64,000 bases of DNA from an uncultured Flavobacterium sp. GTDB lineage: Bacteria; Bacteroidota; Bacteroidia; Flavobacteriales; Flavobacteriaceae. This document shows positions 3,847 to 58,799 of this stretch, one piece after another (within the stretch, counting starts at the first letter, position 1; each line of letters opens with the position of its first letter). The stretch lies in NCBI RefSeq assembly GCF_963975515.1, contig NZ_CAXBGY010000012.1:12467-76466 (forward strand), given 5' to 3'. The notes below the pieces were generated by a model, which had not been told where the DNA came from, ran no database searches, and saw only the letters and a program-made list of their open reading frames with translations. Position numbers and translations under genes: made by a program.

Positions 3847-4824
3847 TTATTTTATAAATTTTGTTGAATTGATTATTGCTTCCATTTCGAACATGTGATC
3901 TCTTTTGGCTTTTGTAGGCAAGTAAGTAAATCCTTCAACAATTAGATAACGATTGTTTTTAGTGTCTTTGATAGCATAATTTACAAAAGGTCCACCCATA
4001 AAATCGTTTTTTAAAACCCAAGTACCTTTAGCTAAATATGTAAACTTGTTGTCTAATTTTGTTTCAAACAAATAAGGTGCATAAGCTTCTTCGGTAATCA
4101 TCCATGTGTTTGGCAACATTCCATGAATATTTGCTTTTCCAATAGAATCTCTAATGTTTATTATATTTTGAACGATATCCTGATTTTTTTCTACACTTTC
4201 AATAGGCACTTCGTAAATTAAAATACTATTGTAACCTGATTGAAATTCTTTTCGTAACCAAATAAATTTATCTTTAACCGTGTCATATTCATAACCATAA
4301 CCAATGTTCATAGACACACCAAATTTGTCTTCTATCTTTTTATCATTAACCAATGATTTTTTCATTCGTTTTTGATTCTCAATAATTTCACCGTTTTTAA
4401 CCGTGCTAATTATTTCTTTAGATTTAGATTCAATAATTTTTAATAAATCTTCATTTGTTTTTCCTGATATAAAAAAAACATTTTGAGGTGCTGCGTATAA
4501 ATCTTTAGAAGCTCCAAAACCCGTTTTGTCTGCTTTTTGAACAACAATTATGTTTCTTCCTTTTTTTACAAAACCATCAAATATTTTTGTTGGATATTGA
4601 TTGATATTAAACAAAGGCTCTTCTTGAGGCAAACCGTCTACTGGTGCAGCAAATTTTTTACGCAAAGAATCTCCAATTTCTCCATTCCAAAGTGGTTCAT
4701 CAATAAAAATAGAAACGTTATTAATATTTCCTGAAGATTCAGAAAGTCCTTTGTTGTTAGAAGCTTCTTCTTTACAAGAAAATAATAAGAAGGAAAGAAA
4801 CAGAAGTAAAAAAGATCTTTTCAT
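3847..4824 (-). CDS. Lipoprotein, DUF4837-like
   Basis: Lipobox (LLFSC); GLPQEEPLF, GTW...FMGGPFVNY and KRDHMFEMEAI resemble this Bacteroidota family, which usually follows mltD. Confidence 0.75.
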   Translation of the reverse strand: MKRSFLLLFLSFLLFSCKEEASNNKGLSESSGNINNVSIFIDEPLWNGEIGDSLRKKFAAPVDGLPQEEPLFNINQYPTKIFDGFVKKGRNIIVVQKADKTGFGASKDLYAAPQNVFFISGKTNEDLLKIIESKSKEIISTVKNGEIIENQKRMKKSLVNDKKIEDKFGVSMNIGYGYEYDTVKDKFIWLRKEFQSGYNSILIYEVPIESVEKNQDIVQNIINIRDSIGKANIHGMLPNTWMITEEAYAPYLFETKLDNKFTYLAKGTWVLKNDFMGGPFVNYAIKDTKNNRYLIVEGFTYLPTKAKRDHMFEMEAIINSTKFIK

Positions 4825-4846
4825 TTGAGGTTGATTTAATAAGATT

Positions 4847-6364
4847 TTACCCGTTTATTTTTAATTTCATTCCGGGTTGAATATTATCACCACTAATATC
4901 GTTCCATTTTTTTAAATCGTCTGTAGAAACTCCAGGATATTTTTTTGCAATAGTGTATAATGAATCCCCATTTCTAACTATATAACTAGTTGTACTGGTT
5001 GATCTAGAAGTCTTTGAATTATCTTCTTTTGTGCTATAAATTTTTAATTTATTTCCAGTTTGTATTGTGGAAGACCTAAGATTATTCCATTTTTTTATTT
5101 CTGAAACAGAAACATCATATTTTTGTGCAATTAAACCAAGACTTTCTCCACGTCTTACTGAATGGTACGCTAATTTACTTTTTGTTTTGGTTTCTTTATA
5201 TTCAACGATATTTGTTTCTTCAGAATTTTCAACAATAGCATCTTGTGCTTTTTCTCCACCATTTTTTACATAATCAATGTAAGCATAAACTGCTTCTTCA
5301 TTAGAAACAAATAAACCGATTTTATCTTTTGGTAATCTTAAAAAGTGAGGTTTATCTTCGTTAAAAGGAATTATGTTTAATTTATAAATTGGGTTTAAAA
5401 ATTCTACTTGATCTTGAGGAATATCAAATAAATCCGAAACCTGTTTGAAACTCATTTCTCTTCTAACCTTAATGGTGTCAGTTTCAAAATAAGTTAAAGG
5501 TGCTTTTTTTGGTTTAATTCCCAATTCCTTTTTATATTCATAAATATACATTGTAGCTAAAAAAGCGGGTACATAATTAGCTGTTTCTCTAGGAAGATTT
5601 TTTCTAATAATCCAATAATTTTGACTTCCTCCAGAACGTCTTATGGCTTTAGAAACATTTCCTGGGCCAGCATTATATGAAGCTAAAACTAAACTCCAAT
5701 CTCCAAAAATTTTATATAAACTAGATAAATATTGGCAAGCTGCTTCAGTTGCTTTTAAGGGATCGTATCTTTCATCAACATAAGAATTGACTTCTAAGTT
5801 AAATTGTTTTCCAGTTGGATACATAAATTGCCAAAGTCCAGAAGCACCAACTCTACTTTTTGCTCTTGGATTTAAAGCTGATTCTACAATTGCTAAATAT
5901 TTAATTTCTAAAGGCACATCATATTTAGCTAAATGCTCTTCAAACATTGGAAAATAATATTCAGAAATAGCCATTAATCGTTCAAAACTATGTTTTCTGT
6001 TTTTTAAGAATGATTTAATTACATTTTCAAGTGATGTGTTATACTCAATATTAAATGGTGATTTATCATCCATTTTTTTAAGTCTTTTCTTAAGAACTTC
6101 TGTTGACATTTCGTAAGCAACAGCTTCCTCTATGTCCAAGTCAGAAACATCTTCGTACATATTATCAAAAAGCTCTTGGTTAGATAATTCTTCCATCCAT
6201 CTGCTATCTATACAAATGCTTGTACTGTGGTTAACAAATGATGCTTTTAAAGAATCTAAATAAGAAACTTTTGTAACTGTTTCTTCAATTAAATTTGCCT
6301 CTACACTTTCTTGTGCAAAGGAAATTAAAGGTAATAGTAAGAATAAAATGTTTTTGATTTTCAT
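4847..6364 (-). CDS. mltD: Lytic murein transglycosylase (SLT domain) with two C-terminal LysM domains
   Basis: LAIVESAL, GASGLWQFM, ASYNAGPGNV and ETANYVP; two LysM repeats (HSVRRGESLGLIA, YIVRNGDSLYTIA). Confidence 0.9.
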   Translation of the reverse strand: MKIKNILFLLLPLISFAQESVEANLIEETVTKVSYLDSLKASFVNHSTSICIDSRWMEELSNQELFDNMYEDVSDLDIEEAVAYEMSTEVLKKRLKKMDDKSPFNIEYNTSLENVIKSFLKNRKHSFERLMAISEYYFPMFEEHLAKYDVPLEIKYLAIVESALNPRAKSRVGASGLWQFMYPTGKQFNLEVNSYVDERYDPLKATEAACQYLSSLYKIFGDWSLVLASYNAGPGNVSKAIRRSGGSQNYWIIRKNLPRETANYVPAFLATMYIYEYKKELGIKPKKAPLTYFETDTIKVRREMSFKQVSDLFDIPQDQVEFLNPIYKLNIIPFNEDKPHFLRLPKDKIGLFVSNEEAVYAYIDYVKNGGEKAQDAIVENSEETNIVEYKETKTKSKLAYHSVRRGESLGLIAQKYDVSVSEIKKWNNLRSSTIQTGNKLKIYSTKEDNSKTSRSTSTTSYIVRNGDSLYTIAKKYPGVSTDDLKKWNDISGDNIQPGMKLKING

Positions 6365-6432
6365 CTTGCAGGAATTTGTAATTTAATAGTTTATTAATCT
6401 ATGATAACTCAAAAAAGTCAAAAATAGTATTA

Positions 6433-7620
6433 TTATTGGATAATAGCTTGAATTCCAGGTAAAGTTTTTCCTTCTAGCATTTCTAACATTGCTCCACCAC
6501 CTGTGGAAACATAGCTTACTTGATCTTCAAAACCAAATTGTTTTACTGCTGAAACTGAGTCACCACCACCAACTAGAGAAAAAGCTCCGTTTTTAGTTGC
6601 TGCAGCAATATATTCTCCAACTTTAATTGTTCCATTAGCAAAACTTGGCATTTCGAAAACACCAACTGGTCCATTCCAAAGAATCGTTTTCGATTTTAAA
6701 ATTACTTCTTCAAAAAGTTCAAGCGATTTTGGTCCAGCATCTAAACCTTGCCAACCATCAGGAATTTTAGTTACATCAATTATTTGAGTATTAGCATCGT
6801 TAGAAAAAGCATCAGCAGCAATTACATCAACTGGTAAATGTATTTGCACTCCTTTTTCTTTTGCTTTTTTTAAAATTTCTAAAGCTAAATCCATCTTATC
6901 ATCCTCACATATAGAGTTTCCAACACTTCCGCCTAAAGCTTTGATAAAAGTAAAAGTCATTCCTCCACCAATTATCATATGGTCGATTTTATCTAAAATA
7001 TTTTCGATAATTGTAATTTTCGAAGATACTTTTGAACCCCCTAAAATTGCTGTAACTGGTTTTTGAGAATCCTTAAGTACTTTATTGATGCTTTCAATTT
7101 CTTTGGCTAACAATAATCCGAAATATTTATCATTTGGAAAATAATTTGCAATTATAGTTGTTGAAGCATGCGCTCTATGTGCTGTTCCAAAAGCATCATT
7201 TACATATACATCTCCTAACGTTGATAATTTTTTTGCGAAGTCAGAATCTCCTGCTTCTTCTTCCTTATAAAACCTAAGGTTTTCTAGTAGAAGTATTTGA
7301 TTTGGTTGTAGATTGCTTGCTTTTGAGTGTGCATCGCTACCTATACAATCATCTGCAAAAAGAATTTCTCTTCCTAAAATTTCTGAAACTTTACCAATAA
7401 TATGCTTTAATGAATATTTTTCTTCCTTTCCTTTTGGTCTTCCTAAATGCGACATTAAGATTACACTTCCACCCTCATTTAAGATTTTATCAATAGTTGG
7501 TTTTGCAGCTTCAATTCGTGTTGCATCAGTTACATTAAAATTTTCGTCTAAAGGAACATTAAAATCAACTCTGATAATTGCTTTTTTTCCATTAAAGTCT
7601 AAATTATTGATTGTTTTCAT
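6433..7620 (-). CDS. pgk: Phosphoglycerate kinase
   Basis: [41 protein letters not shown] and STGGGA. Confidence 0.99.
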
Positions 7621-7666
7621 AAGAAGTTATTGTTTTCAGTTTATTGAAATTGATCTATTTTTTATA

Positions 7667-7674
7667 CAAAAATA
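7667..7674 (-). promoter_or_regulatory. Bacteroidota -7 promoter element for pgk
   Basis: TATTTTTG on the minus strand fits TAnnTTTG, about 47 nt before the start codon. Confidence 0.5.
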
Positions 7675-7702
7675 AAAAAGACTCACAAATGAGTCTTTTT
7701 TT
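7674..7702. terminator. Intrinsic terminator after the 648-aa gene
   Basis: AAAAAAGACTCA-CAAA-TGAGTCTTTTTTT hairpin with A/T tails. Confidence 0.75.
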
Positions 7703-7718
7703 AATACTAATTTAACGT

Positions 7719-9665
7719 TTACACGAGTTCGTCATCTTTAGATCTCGTGGCAACCATTTTTTGTTGGGGACAAAAAGGGTCATTATAATCTACATTCTGT
7801 TCATTACTTACTAATTGGTCAGGACTAGTGTTTACTAACATTATCCAAGTATCACCATAATATTTTCCGTTAACATTTGAATAATATAAATTTAAAGCAT
7901 TTGTCCAAGAATCATTTTTACTTACAAAAACATATCTGTAATTATTTTTTGGGTTGATAAAGAAATTAGCATCAATACCTAAACTTCTTAGTTTTGCAAC
8001 AAAACGAGTTGCATTTCTATGAACAGCAAACACATTTGCAATTACATAAAATCCACGTTGTTGATTATAAATTTCAACCATTGGTCCTGGAATTGCGGTG
8101 ATTTTTTGTTTTTGTCCATATTGATTTTGTGCAACTTGACTCAATTTTTCGCTAATCATAACTGGATCAATCATTGTTGTGTTTGAGGCAACAACATCAT
8201 TGTTCTCGGTCTTAACTTTTGGGTGACTAACTACAACTTCTTTTTTTGGAGCTAAAACAACACTGTTTGTGTTTTCTTTTGGACTGTTATCGACTTTAAC
8301 TGCAATTATTGTTTCTTTTTTGGTCGGCTCAATTGCTTTAACTTCTATTTTAGTTGTTTCAGCAACTATATTCTCTTTAGTTGGTATTTTAGTTTCTGAC
8401 TTTATTTCGTTTTTAACAATAGTTGTTGTTGTAGGTTTTGTATTGTCGGCAATAACTGTTTCTGTAACTATAGGAGTTGTAACAGATTCTTTAGTTTCTT
8501 CAGCTTCATTTGAAACAAACATAACTGGTTCTTTTTTAGCATCTTGAACCTCTACATTGAAAGCGTTAAAGAACATAAAGTATCTATCTCCTACTGTTTT
8601 AAGCTTTAAGGTTACATTATCCGTATTATTTTGAATAACAGAATTATCAGGATTTGCAATAGTTATTAAACTTGTGTCATAACCTAGGGTATTTTTACTG
8701 TTTGGGTTTCTGTCCGTAAAGTATTGGTCATTTATAATAATATTACTATTGAAAAAATTATTTTCTAATTTTAATGGTCCGCTTAATAATGTGAAAATTT
8801 CACTTAGTTGAGATTTTATTTGTAATTGGTCTCCAGCTAAATTATTATCCCCTTCTAAACCAGCACAAGCTAATTTAGCAAAAACATTTCCTTCAGGTAA
8901 AGTTTTAAATCCTGTAAATAATATTTCTGTGTCTTTATCTGTTACACCTGCAAAACCATCATATGAAGTTATGAATTTTGCTGTTTCGTTATCATCTTCA
9001 TAAACAAAAAACATTGTCCATCCACCTGAAACTCCACCTTCAACAACTCCTTGTGTTGCTTTTATGTTTGCAACTGTATATTCTCCAACAGGACTTCCAA
9101 GCTCTTTTACTAAATCGGTAATGTCAGCATAAACTGCATATGGAGCACTTTCGTCAAATCCTTTTTTATCTAAACCATCAAAAATTATATTTCCTTTTAT
9201 ATCTACATATTTAGATTCTCCAGGAAGTTTCAATTTAATTTGATCAAACTCTTCTCTATTTTTATCAAATGCTTTAAATTTGTTGCGTTTCTTTTTGATT
9301 CCACTATTGTATTTATAAGTGGCAGACCAGTATAAACCAGCGTAAACTATTTTTTTATTTTCTTCATTTTCAAGATATAATGTTGCAGCACTAGAACTAA
9401 AAGTAGACATGTCACTATCAATATCAATATAAAACATTTCAAACTCGTCATTAAGTTTGGCTGTTTTAGTTGCGTTCATGTATGGCATGTTTGGATTATT
9501 TCCATAATCTTTTCTGTTCACAATATTGTTTGCTATAACAGTCATATCGCCTTTAACATAAGACTGATATCTTACTTTAAAAGGAACGGGTAATTGACCA
9601 TAAGAAAAAGATGTTGCAAAAAGGATTGCAACCATTAACCCTAATTTTGAAATTTTGCTTAACAT
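7719..9665 (-). CDS. Exported protein: SprB-N-terminal-like domain, Thr/Glu/Lys-rich linker and SPOR-like C-terminal domain
   Basis: Residues ~24-372 align by eye with the N-terminus of the 4674-aa protein (GDMTVIANNIVNR, AGLYWSATY, GGWT, LEGDN, RNPNSxNTLGxD). C-terminal GFYVIANVFAVHRNATRFVAKLRSLG is SPOR-like. No T9SS CTD. Confidence 0.8.
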   Translation of the reverse strand: MLSKISKLGLMVAILFATSFSYGQLPVPFKVRYQSYVKGDMTVIANNIVNRKDYGNNPNMPYMNATKTAKLNDEFEMFYIDIDSDMSTFSSSAATLYLENEENKKIVYAGLYWSATYKYNSGIKKKRNKFKAFDKNREEFDQIKLKLPGESKYVDIKGNIIFDGLDKKGFDESAPYAVYADITDLVKELGSPVGEYTVANIKATQGVVEGGVSGGWTMFFVYEDDNETAKFITSYDGFAGVTDKDTEILFTGFKTLPEGNVFAKLACAGLEGDNNLAGDQLQIKSQLSEIFTLLSGPLKLENNFFNSNIIINDQYFTDRNPNSKNTLGYDTSLITIANPDNSVIQNNTDNVTLKLKTVGDRYFMFFNAFNVEVQDAKKEPVMFVSNEAEETKESVTTPIVTETVIADNTKPTTTTIVKNEIKSETKIPTKENIVAETTKIEVKAIEPTKKETIIAVKVDNSPKENTNSVVLAPKKEVVVSHPKVKTENNDVVASNTTMIDPVMISEKLSQVAQNQYGQKQKITAIPGPMVEIYNQQRGFYVIANVFAVHRNATRFVAKLRSLGIDANFFINPKNNYRYVFVSKNDSWTNALNLYYSNVNGKYYGDTWIMLVNTSPDQLVSNEQNVDYNDPFCPQQKMVATRSKDDELV

Positions 9666-53023: not shown

Positions 53024-53926
53024 ATGAGTCACAACCACATTCATAAACATCAAGTACAAGGAAAAAACTTATTGTATTCCATTTTATTGAATGTGGTTAT
53101 TACGGTTGCACAAGTTATAGGTGGAATAATTTCAGGAAGTTTAGCGTTACTTTCAGATGCATTACATAATTTTTCGGATGTTATATCCTTAGTTATCAGT
53201 TATGTTGCTCATAAATTATCAAGAAGAAAGGCATCTTATGAACAAACTTTTGGGTTAAAACGTGCTGAACTAATTGCAGCTTTCGTAAATGCTTTGTCTT
53301 TAATTGTTGTGGCAATTTATTTGGTTTATGAAGCTATTTCTCGCTTTTTTCATCCACATGATATTCAACCAACAATAGTTATTTGGTTAGCAGCACTTGG
53401 AATTTTAGTCAATGGTTTTTCTGTTTTATTGCTAAAAAAAGACGCTGATCACAACCTAAATATGAAATCGGCTTATTTACATTTATTAACAGATATGTTA
53501 GCATCTGTTGCAGTTTTGATTGGAGGAGTTTTAATGTATTATTTTCAAATTTATTGGATAGATAGTGTTTTAACTTTGATAATAGCAATTTACTTAATCA
53601 TTGTTGGAGCTGATTTATTATTAAAAGCCACCAAAATGTTAATGCTTTTTACACCAGAAGAAATTGATATAAAAGAAATTGTAAAAACAGTCAATCAAAT
53701 AAAAGGTGTAAAATTATTGCATCACGTTCATGTTTGGCATTTAAATGAAGAAGAATTACATTTAGAAGCACATTTAGATTGTTCAGAAGATATAAAGTTG
53801 AGCGAATTCAACGATATGTTACATCAAATAGAGAAAGTGTTGTTTGAAAAATTTCATATTAATCACGTAAATATCCAACCAGAATTTCAAAAAGAAGATC
53901 CAAAAGAAATAATTGTGCAGGATTAA
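53024..53926 (+). CDS. Cation diffusion facilitator (CzcD/ZitB-like) transporter
   Basis: His-rich N-terminus, SLALLSDALHNFSD, NMKSAYLHLLTD and HHVHVW. Confidence 0.95.
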   Translation: MSHNHIHKHQVQGKNLLYSILLNVVITVAQVIGGIISGSLALLSDALHNFSDVISLVISYVAHKLSRRKASYEQTFGLKRAELIAAFVNALSLIVVAIYLVYEAISRFFHPHDIQPTIVIWLAALGILVNGFSVLLLKKDADHNLNMKSAYLHLLTDMLASVAVLIGGVLMYYFQIYWIDSVLTLIIAIYLIIVGADLLLKATKMLMLFTPEEIDIKEIVKTVNQIKGVKLLHHVHVWHLNEEELHLEAHLDCSEDIKLSEFNDMLHQIEKVLFEKFHINHVNIQPEFQKEDPKEIIVQD

Positions 53927-53976: not shown

Positions 53977-55029
53977 ATGAGCGGAGAAAAACCACAGTTA
54001 AAAAAACAATATTATCCCATAAATTCTAACCTAAGAAGTTATTTAGAAAAGTATAAAAGACTAACCAAAACCAGAGTTTTTTATGATGATTTGTTACGTT
54101 TTCAAGGAGGTATATCTGTTTTTGATAAAGAAGACAAAGATACTTTATGGGTTAGAGTTTACTACAACGAATTTGAAAAGTACGAACTAGATAAGAGTCT
54201 AAAAAAAGTATATACACTATTACATTCAGATGGAGATGAAAGTAGTATAGAGTATTTAAATGTTGATTATATTGATTTTTGCACCTTTGGAAACTCAAAA
54301 CCATTTCGAGTAAAAATCAGAAATATTCTAAACGACAATTACACACATTTTTACATAAAACAAGCAGATGCTTCAAGAATTTTTGGTTTAGAAATTGAAC
54401 ATATTATTTCACCAAATAGCATTAACTTTTTAGTTTTTGAAAACACACTTATAGAAGAACACATTGTTGGAATTCCAGGAGATGTTTTTTTAGAAGAAAA
54501 CTTAAAAGAATGTAATGAACATGAGAAAACTCAAATAGCAAAAGAGTTTGTAAAATTCAATGAGCGTTGTATGATTGGCCTTTTAGGAGATATGCGTTCT
54601 TATAATTTTGTGGTTATTCCGATTTATGATTTTGACCAACGAATTTTTAGAATTAGAGCCATCGATTTTGACCAACAAAGTTATGAAGGAAGTTTTAAAC
54701 TTTACAAACCTCACTTATTTAAAGAAAATTTTAAGTTTTCAGAATTAGTTCAAAATAAATTGAATCCTAAATCAATTACACAATATCAAATAGAAGAACG
54801 TTCAATTATTGTAAAAAGGTTAATTGATACAAAAGCAAGATTAAGACGATTAATTGAAGCTATGAAATCGACAAAGCTAGCACCAATTGAACATATTCAG
54901 CAACTACAAGAAGAAATTTATGAAGTGACTCTAGATATGGATTTCAAAAAAGCCAATTCAATGGGAGAAATTGTTCAAGCAGCTTTAAATTTTATGATCA
55001 GAAATTATAAGGTAGAAGACAATAATTAA
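53977..55029 (+). CDS. Hypothetical protein with putative atypical-kinase (HipA/PI3-4K-like) motifs
   Basis: G105-NSKP, FYIK128, LEIE, GD205-MRSY-N210 and ID230-FD in kinase-like order. Confidence 0.6.
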   Translation: MSGEKPQLKKQYYPINSNLRSYLEKYKRLTKTRVFYDDLLRFQGGISVFDKEDKDTLWVRVYYNEFEKYELDKSLKKVYTLLHSDGDESSIEYLNVDYIDFCTFGNSKPFRVKIRNILNDNYTHFYIKQADASRIFGLEIEHIISPNSINFLVFENTLIEEHIVGIPGDVFLEENLKECNEHEKTQIAKEFVKFNERCMIGLLGDMRSYNFVVIPIYDFDQRIFRIRAIDFDQQSYEGSFKLYKPHLFKENFKFSELVQNKLNPKSITQYQIEERSIIVKRLIDTKARLRRLIEAMKSTKLAPIEHIQQLQEEIYEVTLDMDFKKANSMGEIVQAALNFMIRNYKVEDNN

Positions 55030-55030
55030 T

Positions 55031-55747
55031 TTGAGAAAAACACTATTCATACTTTGTACGTTAGGAATTATTTCTTGTAAAAAAGAAGTAAAAGAACCTA
55101 TTGAAAAAATTCAAGAACAAAAAAAAACTCAAATAGATTCAATTCTTAAACAAACTGAAACTATTGAAACTAACAAAAACAGTTCTGAAACAACTATAAA
55201 AGACACTTCATTTGTTAACATACAAACTTTAAGTTCTTACTTCGTTTTAGATTTAAAATACGCTACAACAGATAATTTTTTAAAACAAAAAGTATATGAT
55301 TGTCCCGAATGTTTTTTAAGAATTAGTACTGCAAAAGCTTTGGTAAAAGCCAATAAAGAATTTATTAAAAAAGGTTTCCGTATAAAATTATATGATTGTT
55401 ATCGACCATTAGATGTCCAAAAAAAAATGTGGAAAATTTTACCAGGAACAAATTATGTAGCAAATCCCAAGAAAGGATCAAAGCATAATCGTGGAGCTGC
55501 AGTTGATTTAACTTTAGTAGATTCTTTAGGAAATGAATTAGACATGGGAACAAAATTTGATTTTTTTGGTCCAGAAGCACATCATACGTATACAAAACAT
55601 TCAAAGCAAGTTTTAGCGAATCGAAAATTACTTAAAGAAACCTTAGCAAAATATAATTTTAAAAGCATTTATAACGAATGGTGGCATTATGAATTTCGTC
55701 CAGAAAGATACTCTACAGTCTCTAATTTTAAATGGAAATGCGAATAA
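55031..55747 (+). CDS. M15D D-Ala-D-Ala dipeptidase (VanX/DdpX-like), lipoprotein
   Basis: TTG start, lipobox IISC; DLKYAT, YDCYRP, SKHNRGAAVDLTL and EWWHY. Confidence 0.92.
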   Translation: MRKTLFILCTLGIISCKKEVKEPIEKIQEQKKTQIDSILKQTETIETNKNSSETTIKDTSFVNIQTLSSYFVLDLKYATTDNFLKQKVYDCPECFLRISTAKALVKANKEFIKKGFRIKLYDCYRPLDVQKKMWKILPGTNYVANPKKGSKHNRGAAVDLTLVDSLGNELDMGTKFDFFGPEAHHTYTKHSKQVLANRKLLKETLAKYNFKSIYNEWWHYEFRPERYSTVSNFKWKCE

Positions 55748-55765
55748 TATTTAACTTTACTGACT

Positions 55766-56584
55766 ATGCAAACAATTGATAAAGCCTTAATTAAAAGTAT
55801 TTATAAAAAGAGAAACGAAAACTCCCATAAAGGAAATTATGGTCATTCTTTATTAATTGCAGGAAGTAAAAATAAAATGGGAGCAGCTTTGATAGCTTCA
55901 AAAGCCTGTTTGCGTTCTGGAACAGGTTTACTAACCGTTTCAATTCCTGAAGAAGAAAGAAATACGCTAAATACTTTTTTACCAGAAGCAATGCTTTCTT
56001 TTAGAGATAACCTCATAGATTTTTCATTGTTTGATGTTGTTGGAATCGGACCAGGTTTAGAACAAAATGAAGCGGCTCAAAAATTAGTTTATTCTGTTTT
56101 TTTAAAAGCAAAATCTTTAGTTATTGATGCAGATGCTTTAAATATTTTAGCCCAAAATCAAGATTGGTTTAGTCAGTTACCCAAAAACTCAGTTTTAACA
56201 CCACATCCAAAAGAGTTTGATAGATTATTTGGAAATCATGATTCTGAAGAAGAGCGAAGAACAACAGCTATAGTTAAAGCAAAAGAATTCAATTGTATAC
56301 TAGTTTTAAAAGGACACAAAACGTTTATAACAAACGGAATAGATTCTTTTGAAAACACAACAGGAAATTCAGGCCTAGCAAAAGGTGGTTCTGGTGATGC
56401 TTTAACTGGAATGATAACTGCATTTTTAGCACAAAATTATACATGTTTAGAAGCAAGCGTTTTAGGAGTTTACCTTCATGGATTAGCAGCAGACATTACC
56501 TTAGAATCACAAAGTGAAGAAAGTATGTTAATAACAGATGTTATTGAAAACATAGGACTTGCTTTTCAAAAAATTCAAGAATAA
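55766..56584 (+). CDS. nnrD: NAD(P)H-hydrate dehydratase (stand-alone YjeF C-terminal domain)
   Basis: SHKGNYG, IGPGL, VIDADAL, LTPHPKEF and LAKGGSGDALTG. Confidence 0.93.
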   Translation: MQTIDKALIKSIYKKRNENSHKGNYGHSLLIAGSKNKMGAALIASKACLRSGTGLLTVSIPEEERNTLNTFLPEAMLSFRDNLIDFSLFDVVGIGPGLEQNEAAQKLVYSVFLKAKSLVIDADALNILAQNQDWFSQLPKNSVLTPHPKEFDRLFGNHDSEEERRTTAIVKAKEFNCILVLKGHKTFITNGIDSFENTTGNSGLAKGGSGDALTGMITAFLAQNYTCLEASVLGVYLHGLAADITLESQSEESMLITDVIENIGLAFQKIQE

Positions 56585-56675: not shown

Positions 56676-58799
56676 ATGAACCAAATTCAATTTATAAAAA
56701 CAGTTGTAAACACTGTTGATAAAAACATAGAAGCCACTTTAAAATTACTTTCAGAAGATTGTACAATTCCCTTTATTTCGCGTTACCGAAAAGATACAAC
56801 CGGAAATTTAGATGAGGTTCAAATTGAAAATATTGCCAAACTTTCAAAGCAATATGACGAAATCGTAAAACGAAAAGATTCCATTCTAAAAACAATTGAA
56901 GAACAAGGTCAATTAACTTCAGAACTAAAATCAAAAATCCAAAACAGTTTCGATTTACAAGAAATTGAAGATTTGTATTTGCCTTATAAAAAGAAGAAAA
57001 AAACCAAAGCTGATGTAGCTCGTGAAAACGGATTAGAACCTTTGGCAAAAATCATAATGGCTCAAAACAATGACGAAATTGACTTTGAAGCTTCAAAATA
57101 CATTTCAAAAAATGTTGTAAACGAAGATGAAGCCTTACAAGGTGCAAGAGACATTATTGCCGAATGGATAAACGAAAATGTTTTTGTCAGAAAGAATCTT
57201 CGTCGATTGTTTCAAAGAAAAGCTACTGTAACTACAAAAGTGGTTAAGAAGAAAGCTGAAGAAGAAGATGCTCAAAAATTCAAACAATATTTTGATTGGT
57301 CAGAACCAATTTCAAAAGCACCTTCACATAGATTATTAGCCATGCTTCGTGCTGTAAATGAAGGTTTCATAAAACTAAAAGTTGAGGTTGATAATGATGA
57401 AGCTATAGATTTCATTGAAGAAAACACCTTAAAAGGTAGAAATGAATCTACAGAACAAGTCAAAATTGCTATAAAAGACAGTTACAAACGTCTATTAGAA
57501 CCAGCAATTTCAAACGAAACTCTGCAAGAAGCAAAAACTAAAGCCGATGAAAAAGCCATTGAAGTTTTTGCTGGTAATTTAGGGCAATTATTATTAGCAC
57601 CACCTTTAGGTGAAAAACGAATTTTAGCGATTGATCCAGGTTTTAGAAGTGGTTGTAAAATTGTTTGTTTGGATGAAAAAGGAGATTTGTTATATAACGA
57701 AACCATTTATCCACACGCACCACAAAACGAAAGCGGAATGGCAATGAAGAAAATCCGTTCCATGGTAAACGCTTACAATGTTGAAGCCATTTCTATTGGA
57801 AACGGAACAGCAAGTCGTGAAACCGAATTTTTTATCAAAAAAATTGCTTTTGACAAACCCGTTCAAGTATTTGTAGTTTCAGAAGCTGGAGCATCAGTTT
57901 ATTCAGCATCAAAAATTGCTCGTGAAGAATTTCCAAATTTTGATGTAACCGTTCGTGGTTCAGTTTCTATTGGAAGAAGATTGTCAGATCCTTTAGCTGA
58001 ATTAGTAAAAATCGACGCAAAATCCATTGGAGTTGGTCAATACCAACACGATGTCGACCAAACCAAATTAAAAGAAGAATTAGACAATACTGTTGTTCGA
58101 TGTGTGAATTCTGTTGGAATAAACATCAACACAGCTAGTAAATCTCTATTAAGTTACGTCTCTGGAATTGGAGAAAAAATGGCAGAAAACATTGTAGCTT
58201 ATCGTTCAGAAAACGGTCCTTTTGAAGACCGAAAACAAATCAAAAAAGTACCAAGATTAGGAGAAAAAGCTTATCAACAAGCCGCAGCATTTATCAGAAT
58301 AAAAGACGGAAAAAACCCTTTAGACAATTCAGCGGTTCATCCAGAAGCTTATAAAATTGTGGAAAAAATGGCAAAAGATTTGAAAATTTCGGTTGAAGAT
58401 TTAATCGGAAATAAAGAAAAAATAAGCCAAATAAAATTAGAGAACTACATCACTGCTGAAATAGGAATTTTAGGATTAAAAGACATCGTAAAAGAACTAG
58501 AAAAACCAGGATTAGATCCAAGAAAATCAGCCAAAGTATTCGAATTTGATCCAAACGTAAAAACCATAAAAGACTTAAGAACTGGAATGATTTTACCAGG
58601 AATTGTTAATAACATAACAGCTTTCGGTTGTTTCGTAGATGTTGGAATCAAAGAAAGTGGTTTGGTTCACATTTCGCAACTAAAAGAAGGCTTTGTTTCT
58701 GATGTAAATGAAGTAGTAAAACTACACCAACACGTTCAAATAAAAGTCGTTGAGGTTGATGAAGCTAGGAAAAGGATTCAATTGACGATGATTTTGTAA
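56676..58799 (+). CDS. tex: Tex-family RNA-binding transcription accessory protein
   Basis: TIPFISRYRKDTTG, IDPGFRSGCK, SEAGASVYSAS, IGVGQYQHDV and C-terminal S1. Confidence 0.95.
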   Translation: MNQIQFIKTVVNTVDKNIEATLKLLSEDCTIPFISRYRKDTTGNLDEVQIENIAKLSKQYDEIVKRKDSILKTIEEQGQLTSELKSKIQNSFDLQEIEDLYLPYKKKKKTKADVARENGLEPLAKIIMAQNNDEIDFEASKYISKNVVNEDEALQGARDIIAEWINENVFVRKNLRRLFQRKATVTTKVVKKKAEEEDAQKFKQYFDWSEPISKAPSHRLLAMLRAVNEGFIKLKVEVDNDEAIDFIEENTLKGRNESTEQVKIAIKDSYKRLLEPAISNETLQEAKTKADEKAIEVFAGNLGQLLLAPPLGEKRILAIDPGFRSGCKIVCLDEKGDLLYNETIYPHAPQNESGMAMKKIRSMVNAYNVEAISIGNGTASRETEFFIKKIAFDKPVQVFVVSEAGASVYSASKIAREEFPNFDVTVRGSVSIGRRLSDPLAELVKIDAKSIGVGQYQHDVDQTKLKEELDNTVVRCVNSVGININTASKSLLSYVSGIGEKMAENIVAYRSENGPFEDRKQIKKVPRLGEKAYQQAAAFIRIKDGKNPLDNSAVHPEAYKIVEKMAKDLKISVEDLIGNKEKISQIKLENYITAEIGILGLKDIVKELEKPGLDPRKSAKVFEFDPNVKTIKDLRTGMILPGIVNNITAFGCFVDVGIKESGLVHISQLKEGFVSDVNEVVKLHQHVQIKVVEVDEARKRIQLTMIL

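Follow-up and report, generated by a model that had tools for sequence, protein, structure and literature searches.

The locus described here raises the question of whether a gene annotated as hypothetical encodes a kinase and, if so, what such an enzyme would act on. The gene is the open reading frame (ORF) at 53977..55029 on the forward strand of a 64,000-nucleotide stretch of DNA from an uncultured Flavobacterium sp. (contig NZ_CAXBGY010000012.1; the whole stretch is referred to as the window), and its product is a protein of 350 amino acids (aa) whose named homologues are all annotated "hypothetical protein". The original prediction, made from the letters alone, was that the protein carries a hidden atypical-kinase signature and could represent an unrecognised housekeeping kinase family of Flavobacteria. 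The fold and the catalytic residues both came out in favour of the kinase inference, and we report that the gene probably encodes a real and active kinase, as judged from a structural model and an alignment of homologues. The protein adds a member to SEAE1, a family described only recently, and is not a first discovery; new in the present analysis are the absence of an inositol-phosphate synthase from the genus and a conserved gene order with bshA outside Bacteroidia.

Predicted fold and conserved residues

The motifs singled out by the original prediction lie exactly where it had placed them, i.e. FGNSKP at residues 104-109 (including G105), FYIK at 125-128 (K128), LEIE at 138-141, LIEEHIVG at 158-165, GDMRSYN at 204-210 (D205 and N210) and IDFD at 229-232 (D230). 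A full-length AlphaFold2 model was built on a 13-sequence alignment and is confident (predicted local distance difference test, pLDDT, 90.1; predicted TM-score, pTM, 0.88), and in this model the motifs match the kinase elements beta3, alphaC, hinge, catalytic loop and DFG-equivalent one-to-one. The order of the modelled elements is beta1 (94-102), loop (104-109), beta2 (110-116), beta3 ending at K128, alphaC (132-144), beta4/beta5 (151-161), hinge (162-165), alphaD and alphaE (168-201), catalytic loop (202-210), a beta-hairpin (211-228) and IDFD (229-232). This is the bilobal arrangement of the protein-kinase-like (PKL) fold, with a five-stranded N-lobe that includes alphaC, a hinge and a helical C-lobe. 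The core is preceded by an extra 87-aa N-terminal subdomain composed of two short helices, a beta-hairpin and a long helix, and it is followed by an all-helical region that in the model stands in place of the usual substrate-binding lobe of protein kinases. The elements are as follows (forward strand; H, helix and E, strand in the model; SEAE1 residues are those of the family founder).

53977..55029 (+): whole gene; soluble protein with predicted PKL fold, SEAE1 family (ORF and AlphaFold2 model)
53977..54237 (+): N-terminal accessory subdomain, aa 1-87; modelled H17-25, H36-39, E44-49, E55-62 and H65-83
54286..54309 (+): putative nucleotide-binding beta1-beta2 loop FGNSKPFR, aa 104-111; between strands E94-102 and E110-116
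54358..54360 (+): K128, beta3 lysine predicted to contact the ATP phosphates; end of strand E121-129, equivalent to SEAE1 K140
54370..54408 (+): alphaC-equivalent helix, aa 132-144; modelled H132-144, carrying S133, R134, G137, E139 and E141, R134 equivalent to SEAE1 R146
54445..54471 (+): beta5 (strand E157-161) and the hinge loop after it, TLIEEHIVG, aa 157-165
54580..54606 (+): predicted catalytic loop LLGDMRSYN, aa 202-210; after helix H181-201, D205/N210 equivalent to SEAE1 D216/N221
54661..54678 (+): DFG-equivalent IDFDQQ, aa 229-234; after the hairpin E211-218/E221-228, D230/D232 equivalent to SEAE1 D241/D243
54721..55026 (+): all-helical C-terminal region, aa 249-350; modelled H249-261, H264-284, H286-298, H304-318, H321-324 and H329-349

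Foldseek searches of the Protein Data Bank (PDB) with the full-length model gave 32 matches at E≤1e-3, all of them to kinases, with JAK2 and TYK2 JH2, CK2, CK1, Vps34, LegK4, Bud32 and Pan3 among them. Since the global TM-scores of the full-length model were low, the core (aa 88-262, leaving the N-terminal subdomain outside the construct) was modelled alone on 28 sequences, with a pLDDT of 87.4. The core gave 79 matches at E≤1e-3, and the 50 listed are all protein kinases (TM-score, TMq, 0.42-0.57). The best-superposing ones reach TM-scores of 0.50-0.57 with a root-mean-square deviation (rmsd) of 4-6 Å over ~155 of the 175 residues, and the best core matches listed are eukaryotic-type protein kinases or pseudokinases, including TYK2 JH2, MARK, DAPK and GCN2. 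The predicted structure is thus kinase-like with both the full-length and the core model, and the protein almost certainly adopts a PKL fold.

Conservation was scored in 307 homologues (36 after a 70% identity filter; lowest identity to the window protein 31%). Three glycines, G137, G165 and G204, are present in all 307. N106, K128, D131, E160, D205, N210, D230, D232 and Q234, and likewise P109, T157, H162 and F231, are each kept in 306; the single outlier, P0155, is a frameshifted fragment. F110, R111 and N251 are each kept in 305 and R134 in 304, and at D+2 (R207) 293 homologues have Arg and 13 have His. The four residues central to the kinase inference (K128, D205, N210 and D230) are therefore essentially invariant, and they are invariant in 13 diverse representatives of the family; together they supply the beta3 Lys, the catalytic Asp, the Asn at +5 and the metal-binding Asp of the PKL fold. 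Two further parts of the predicted signature held up partially. The glycine-rich-like loop has near-invariant N106, P109, F110 and R111, but G105 itself is kept in 291 homologues and replaced by Ala in 16. Similarly, the acidic helix LEIE is present on the alphaC-equivalent, but its glutamates are not invariant (E139 in 293/307 and E141 in 297/307, i.e. 95-97%), compared with ~99% for R134 and D232. The segment after IDFD (Q233, Q234, E237, Y243, P245 and N251) is also strongly conserved. Because the motifs map one-to-one on the model and are nearly invariant across the homologues, the pattern, as far as model and alignment can tell, is more than chance.

The protein has neither a hydrophobic N-terminus nor a transmembrane segment (Kyte-Doolittle maximum of 1.19 in a 19-residue window; isoelectric point 6.2), and since it has no hydrophobic segment it is predicted to be soluble and cytoplasmic, without a secretion signal.

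Relationship to the SEAE1 family

The SEAE1 family was defined from WP_147203046.1 of Segetibacter aerophilus by Krysinska et al., 24 Sep 2026 (bioRxiv 10.64898/2026.09.18.752743), with the catalytic set K140, R146, D216, N221, D241 and D243 and with 7,867 BLAST homologues, 39% from Bacteroidota and 8.7% from Verrucomicrobiota. In the AlphaFold 3 (AF3) model presented there, ATP and two Mg ions are seated in the normal orientation and an R146-D243 salt bridge replaces the Lys-Glu pair; the family was labelled "putative lipid kinase" from its structural neighbours and a Segetibacter-specific PAP2 neighbour (bioRxiv 10.64898/2026.09.18.752743).

The window protein connects to this family through the representative P0128, a protein of 364 aa that is 45% identical to it (E 6.7e-85 over aa 3-344) and in which the corresponding residues are numbered exactly K140, R146, D216, N221, D241 and D243, as in the SEAE1 founder. 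The nearest named relatives of P0128 are Ferruginibacter and Niastella, and Ferruginibacter belongs to Chitinophagaceae, the family of Segetibacter. The set K128/R134/D205/N210/D230/D232 of the window protein fits the SEAE1 pattern K, R(+6), D, N(+5), D(+25), D(+27), and its spacing is that of the founder apart from the distance between the Lys and the catalytic Asp, which is 77 residues versus 76 in the founder. Another representative, P0130 from the verrucomicrobium Persicirhabdus, agrees with the distribution stated in the preprint. The window protein and the founder are also alike in being cytoplasmic, in lacking a Pfam family, in belonging to lineages of Bacteroidota and Verrucomicrobiota, and in a predicted PKL fold, to which a putative ion pair of non-canonical type would belong. 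Taken together, these data make it very likely that the window protein belongs to SEAE1. The family can consequently not be called unrecognised, as it already bears a name (bioRxiv 10.64898/2026.09.18.752743), although Pfam and NCBIfam have no entry for it. The differences concern context: the PAP2/SmpB/AccD neighbourhood of the founder, Segetibacter-specific according to the preprint, is not at the window locus, and the genus is without inositol-phosphate synthase, so the phosphoinositide context proposed for the founder does not apply.

Database searches with the sequence itself gave no direct link to known families. The Pfam search of the 350-aa protein returned nothing significant (best VD10_N, E 0.084), the NCBIfam search and the PADLOC scan gave no match, and neither phmmer nor the 13-sequence family profile found anything significant among the PDB sequences. 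Pfam searches with each of the 13 representatives likewise returned no significant kinase family. A word-indexed homologue search gave at least 8000 matches, the top ones all Flavobacterium-like, and an exhaustive search of 1.84 billion representatives gave 567 clusters (50% identity) at E≤1e-3, 72 of them at E≤1e-30. The 13 full-length representatives, with identities down to 32%, align end to end, and the identity between phyla is 40-45%.

One genuine domain fusion was seen in the family, in the metagenomic protein P0127 (491 aa), where an N-terminal zinc ribbon region of ~150 aa (PF13453, E 1.5e-10) is fused to the kinase domain. Forms of 424-445 aa were considered as N-terminal fusions and rejected; they are start-codon overcalls in GC-rich genomes.

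Distribution

The genome from which the window derives has a single copy of the gene. Within the genus, 14 of the 15 genomes sampled carry it, and so does every genus sampled from the same taxonomic family. Across Bacteroidota the family was found in 90 of 401 genomes (22%), corresponding to 54 of 179 genera in several classes, and it also occurs in Verrucomicrobiota. The idea of a Flavobacteria-specific family is not borne out by this distribution, and the term "housekeeping" fits the genus and the family, where the gene is near-universal, but not the phylum. Two genomes of one genus (G194 and G266, genus g46) carry two full-length copies each, the sole paralogue pairs among the 90 positive genomes. 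In five genomes (G246, G174, G234, G358 and G266), mostly of family f12, the profile match spans one or two stop codons, possibly natural stops read through at its C-terminal end, or else the mark of pseudogenes.

Proposed mechanism and alternatives to phosphotransfer

Several observations weigh against an active PKL-fold kinase of the SEAE1 type. Profile searches connected the sequence to no kinase family at a significant level, and for SEAE1 itself the HHpred E-value versus PI3_PI4_kinase was 250, in a preprint that is purely computational (bioRxiv 10.64898/2026.09.18.752743). The full-length model has a poor global superposition (TMq 0.25-0.37, rmsd 8-20 Å), and the fold was called from the trimmed core and from local 3Di matches, which are consistent. 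In the alignment the classical alphaC glutamate falls short of strict invariance, the link to SEAE1 is indirect, through a Chitinophagaceae homologue (P0128) with the numbering of the founder, and the neighbouring genes vary between lineages, so that the substrate class is only weakly indicated. Considering both sides, we find it likely that the protein is an orthologue of SEAE1 with a PKL fold, acting in the cytoplasm as a catalytically competent phosphotransferase that uses ATP; there is a good chance, slightly lower, that it is a catalytically active phosphotransferase, as suggested by model and conservation.

In the mechanism that we propose, ATP-Mg would bind in the canonical orientation and with two Mg ions between the five-stranded N-lobe and the helical C-lobe. 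The phosphates would be held by K128 of beta3 and by three residues of the beta1-beta2 loop (N106, S107 and R111), while E160, H162 and G165 would form the hinge. D205 would act as the catalytic base, R207 at D+2 would stabilise the gamma-phosphate, and N210 and D230 would chelate the two Mg ions. In PKA the D+2 position is taken by Lys168, and in PI3K by the His of the 'DRH' motif. R134 on the alphaC-equivalent probably pairs with D232 in place of the classical Lys-Glu ion pair, and the form of the substrate site would be set by the N-terminal subdomain (aa 1-87) and the bundle of C-terminal helices (aa 249-350).

An intact-looking site does not by itself mean phosphotransfer, given that SelO and SidJ are PKL families with such sites that perform other reactions, AMPylation and glutamylation, respectively. 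A kinase fold with other chemistry of this type, or a non-catalytic scaffold, would also agree with the fact that the top fold matches by E-value are the pseudokinase domains of JAK2 and TYK2. The phosphotransfer set (beta3 Lys, Asp, Asn and metal Asp) is, however, complete and invariant, and a scaffold would not keep catalytic residues across phyla. In addition, ATP and two Mg ions are seated normally in the AF3 model of the preprint (bioRxiv 10.64898/2026.09.18.752743), and overall we regard another chemistry or a scaffold function as improbable.

Candidate substrates and comparison with known kinases

The fold matches raise the possibility of an atypical Ser/Thr/Tyr protein kinase that signals through one or more cellular proteins. 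Compared with the eukaryotic-type kinases that match the core best (TYK2 JH2, PDB 5c01/6nzq; GCN2, 1zxe), the protein shares the topology from beta1 to the DFG-equivalent (TMq 0.50-0.57) and a basic residue at D+2, where R207 resembles the Lys of HRDLKPEN kinases. It differs by an identity of just 9-19%, by the lack of HRD, APE and GxGxxG motifs, and by the extra 87-aa N-terminal subdomain. No match to Pkinase (PF00069) was found; the loop reads GDM and not HRD, and no APE follows IDFDQQ, the substrate lobe with the APE motif and the later helices being replaced by an unrelated helical bundle. There is neither a sensor or regulatory domain nor an adjacent phosphatase or FHA partner, and the 40-45% identity between phyla and the invariant segment after DFD fit a single fixed substrate. 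A signalling protein kinase is therefore an unlikely reading, and proteins as substrate of any kind are only a little less so.

As proposed in the preprint (bioRxiv 10.64898/2026.09.18.752743), the protein could instead be a lipid kinase of PI3K/PI4K-like type, with inositol phospholipids as its substrates. The motifs LGDM[R/H]xxN and IDFD resemble GDRHxxN and IDFG, and Vps34 has the highest TM-score among the full-length matches listed (TMq 0.37, rmsd 8.4 Å). The likeness to PI3K/PI4K (PF00454; Vps34, PDB 2x6j) comprises the bilobal fold, a G-D-x-[R/H]-x-x-N loop followed by I-D-F, and a helical region on the C-lobe; the closest structures in the preprint are lipid kinases, and a PAP2 phosphatase is a neighbour in Segetibacter (bioRxiv 10.64898/2026.09.18.752743). 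Against this, ordinary protein kinases are the best fits of the trimmed core, whose 50 listed matches include no PI3K, and the first rank of Vps34 with the full-length model is possibly owing to the helical regions. Neither the protein nor the 13 family members match PF00454, even at E≤1-10; a PI3Ka accessory domain gave one weak match (E 0.089) in a single family member. No lipid-kinase-specific activation loop and no membrane-binding segment or element were identified in the protein, and no PAP2 neighbour is found at the window locus or at the other loci examined.

The metabolism of the genus points in the same direction. Of 31 genomes of the genus, among them the 99.9%-complete genome to which the window belongs, none has myo-inositol-1-phosphate synthase (MIPS, PF01658); the kinase gene is in 14/15 of the genomes sampled for it. 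The PF01658 search was positive in its controls, Bacteroides thetaiotaomicron and five others. The absence of MIPS argues against a phosphoinositide substrate, which in this genus we consider very unlikely, and an inositol lipid kinase in general is only marginally less doubtful. A non-inositol lipid could still be the substrate.

Small-molecule kinases offer a third comparison. In the aminoglycoside phosphotransferase (APH)/choline kinase/fructosamine-3-kinase type an H/G-x-D-x4-N loop is followed by I-D-[FW]-[DE], with an acidic residue two positions after the metal-binding Asp. The window protein appears to resemble this type in that motif pattern, in its short activation segment and in being a stand-alone soluble enzyme; it differs in that PF01636 and PF03881 gave no match and that none of these enzymes is among the listed fold matches.

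Because identity across phyla is high, regulatory domains and partner genes are lacking and the substrate lobe has been replaced, and because the residues at the predicted substrate site (Q233, Q234, E237, Y243, P245 and N251) are conserved, the data point to one fixed substrate, more likely a metabolite or a lipid head group than varied proteins. That the substrate is a small molecule or a lipid is, in our estimate, slightly better than an even chance.

Gene context

The neighbours are those described in the original prediction, with a metal exporter upstream and a D-Ala-D-Ala dipeptidase that begins 1 nt after the stop. They are given below, with a Tex-like gene farther downstream.

53024..53926 (+): CDF cation-efflux transporter, upstream and outside the system (PF01545 E 2e-50, ZT_dimer 2e-13)
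55031..55747 (+): M15 D-Ala-D-Ala dipeptidase, downstream (PF01427 E 8.5e-32)
56676..58799 (+): Tex-like gene (tblastn match downstream of the kinase gene in most Flavobacterium loci of at least 70% identity)

The dipeptidase has a TTG start at 55031, with the stop of the kinase gene ending at 55029, and a lipoprotein-type N-terminus (MRKTLFILCTLGIISC). It adjoins the kinase gene solely in the seven nearest loci (L001-L004, L006, L007 and the window itself), which suggests that its position between the kinase gene and nnrD/tex is a recent insertion; as its adjacency is confined to the closest relatives, it was rejected as a functional partner. The gene for an NAD(P)H-hydrate dehydratase (55766-56584; PF01256, 4e-60) follows the dipeptidase and in many relatives stands directly after the kinase gene. 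We take the gene at 56676..58799 to be tex from reading its 707-aa translation rather than from a database match.

Comparison of 80 Flavobacterium loci showed that the order RNase R / RpiB / CDF / kinase gene / Tex is common above 70% identity; the CDF gene is upstream in many loci, not all, and the order kinase gene-Tex is the sole arrangement conserved in the genus (in most loci of at least 70% identity). A Flavobacterium clade at 62% identity has wholly different neighbours, with a two-component system and an SdiA-regulated-like gene nearby. No shared neighbour was found in 12 loci from other families of Bacteroidia; the Ferruginibacter locus has an amidohydrolase and LigA as neighbours, and the Verrucomicrobiota locus an aldose epimerase and a LysR regulator. 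Since the gene is essentially stand-alone across lineages, the adjacency of the dipeptidase carries no functional weight.

The context also bears on the analogy with HipA and CtkA drawn in the original prediction, according to which the protein could be a toxin kinase or a stress-induced growth-arrest kinase. The sole point in its favour is the D-x4-N pattern followed by an Asp. As had been noted, no helix-turn-helix (HTH) or antitoxin-like ORF in the ORF list of the window adjoins the gene, which is chromosomal, single-copy and in conserved order within the genus. The protein has no HipA Pfam match and no PADLOC match, and no HipA-type structure is among the 50 best listed matches of either fold search. 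The analogy thus falls, such a kinase being highly improbable, and a toxin-antitoxin (HipA) or defence gene was rejected on context and fold matches.

Gene order with bshA outside Bacteroidia

A different neighbour recurs in those classes of the phylum that lie outside Bacteroidia. In at least 12 of the 21 genomes there that carry the family, bshA, the gene for the bacillithiol glycosyltransferase, is followed on its own strand, after 36-120 bp, by the kinase gene. The adjacency spans seven families, those named being f20, f32, f41, f43, f45 and f54 (f41 and f43 twice each). The six bshA loci that were fetched represent six non-Bacteroidia families, with the kinase gene at ~6000-7030 in each, and at least six further genomes are alike. 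The bshA call is based on TIGR03999 (553 bits versus a cut-off of 274), and bshA in GC-rich loci was located by tblastn. At four of the eight non-Bacteroidia loci a GloB-like (glyoxalase-II-like) hydrolase of the metallo-beta-lactamase (MBL) fold adjoins the kinase gene in convergent orientation; its resemblance to TIGR03413 is below the cut-off. In one of these, L124, the hydrolase is adjacent and the bshA adjacency is absent. The positions in the fetched loci are listed below.

L118: bshA 7041-8174, immediately upstream of the kinase gene, same strand; GloB-like MBL hydrolase (TIGR03413-like, below cut-off) 5269-5904
L120: bshA 7040-8185, immediately upstream, same strand
L121: bshA 4853-5998, immediately upstream, same strand; GloB-like MBL hydrolase 7026-7670
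L122: bshA 4818-5942, immediately upstream, same strand
L123: bshA 4817-5938, immediately upstream, same strand
L124: GloB-like MBL hydrolase 5309-5929
L125: bshA 7076-8218, immediately upstream, same strand; GloB-like MBL hydrolase 5225-5854

In the genome of the window, bshA is on another contig than the kinase gene. A phyletic correlation between the kinase and bshA was also considered and is uninformative, as bshA is near-universal (385 of 401 genomes). The bshA link, seen in gene order, is a lead only; that related lineages inherited the order from one another's ancestors would explain it adequately too.

It would be surprising, though worth following, if the kinase were tied to low-molecular-weight-thiol or carbonyl-stress metabolism. 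The substrate could then, by analogy, be a metabolite of the bacillithiol pathway or one derived from methylglyoxal or glycation; fructosamine-3-kinase, a repair enzyme with a PKL fold, provides an example of a small-molecule kinase. To our knowledge, the BshC step of the bacillithiol pathway has not been fully reconstituted in vitro. If true, the connection to thiol or carbonyl metabolism would mean a new enzymatic step in a bacillithiol-type pathway.

Flavobacteriaceae include fish pathogens as well as major marine and freshwater polysaccharide degraders. Our results narrow the search for the substrate of this kinase, arguing against a phosphoinositide in the genus and providing a concrete lead in the gene order with bshA and the MBL hydrolase. 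The identity of the substrate would fill a gap in the core metabolism of Bacteroidota and add a functionally defined branch to the kinase-like superfamily.

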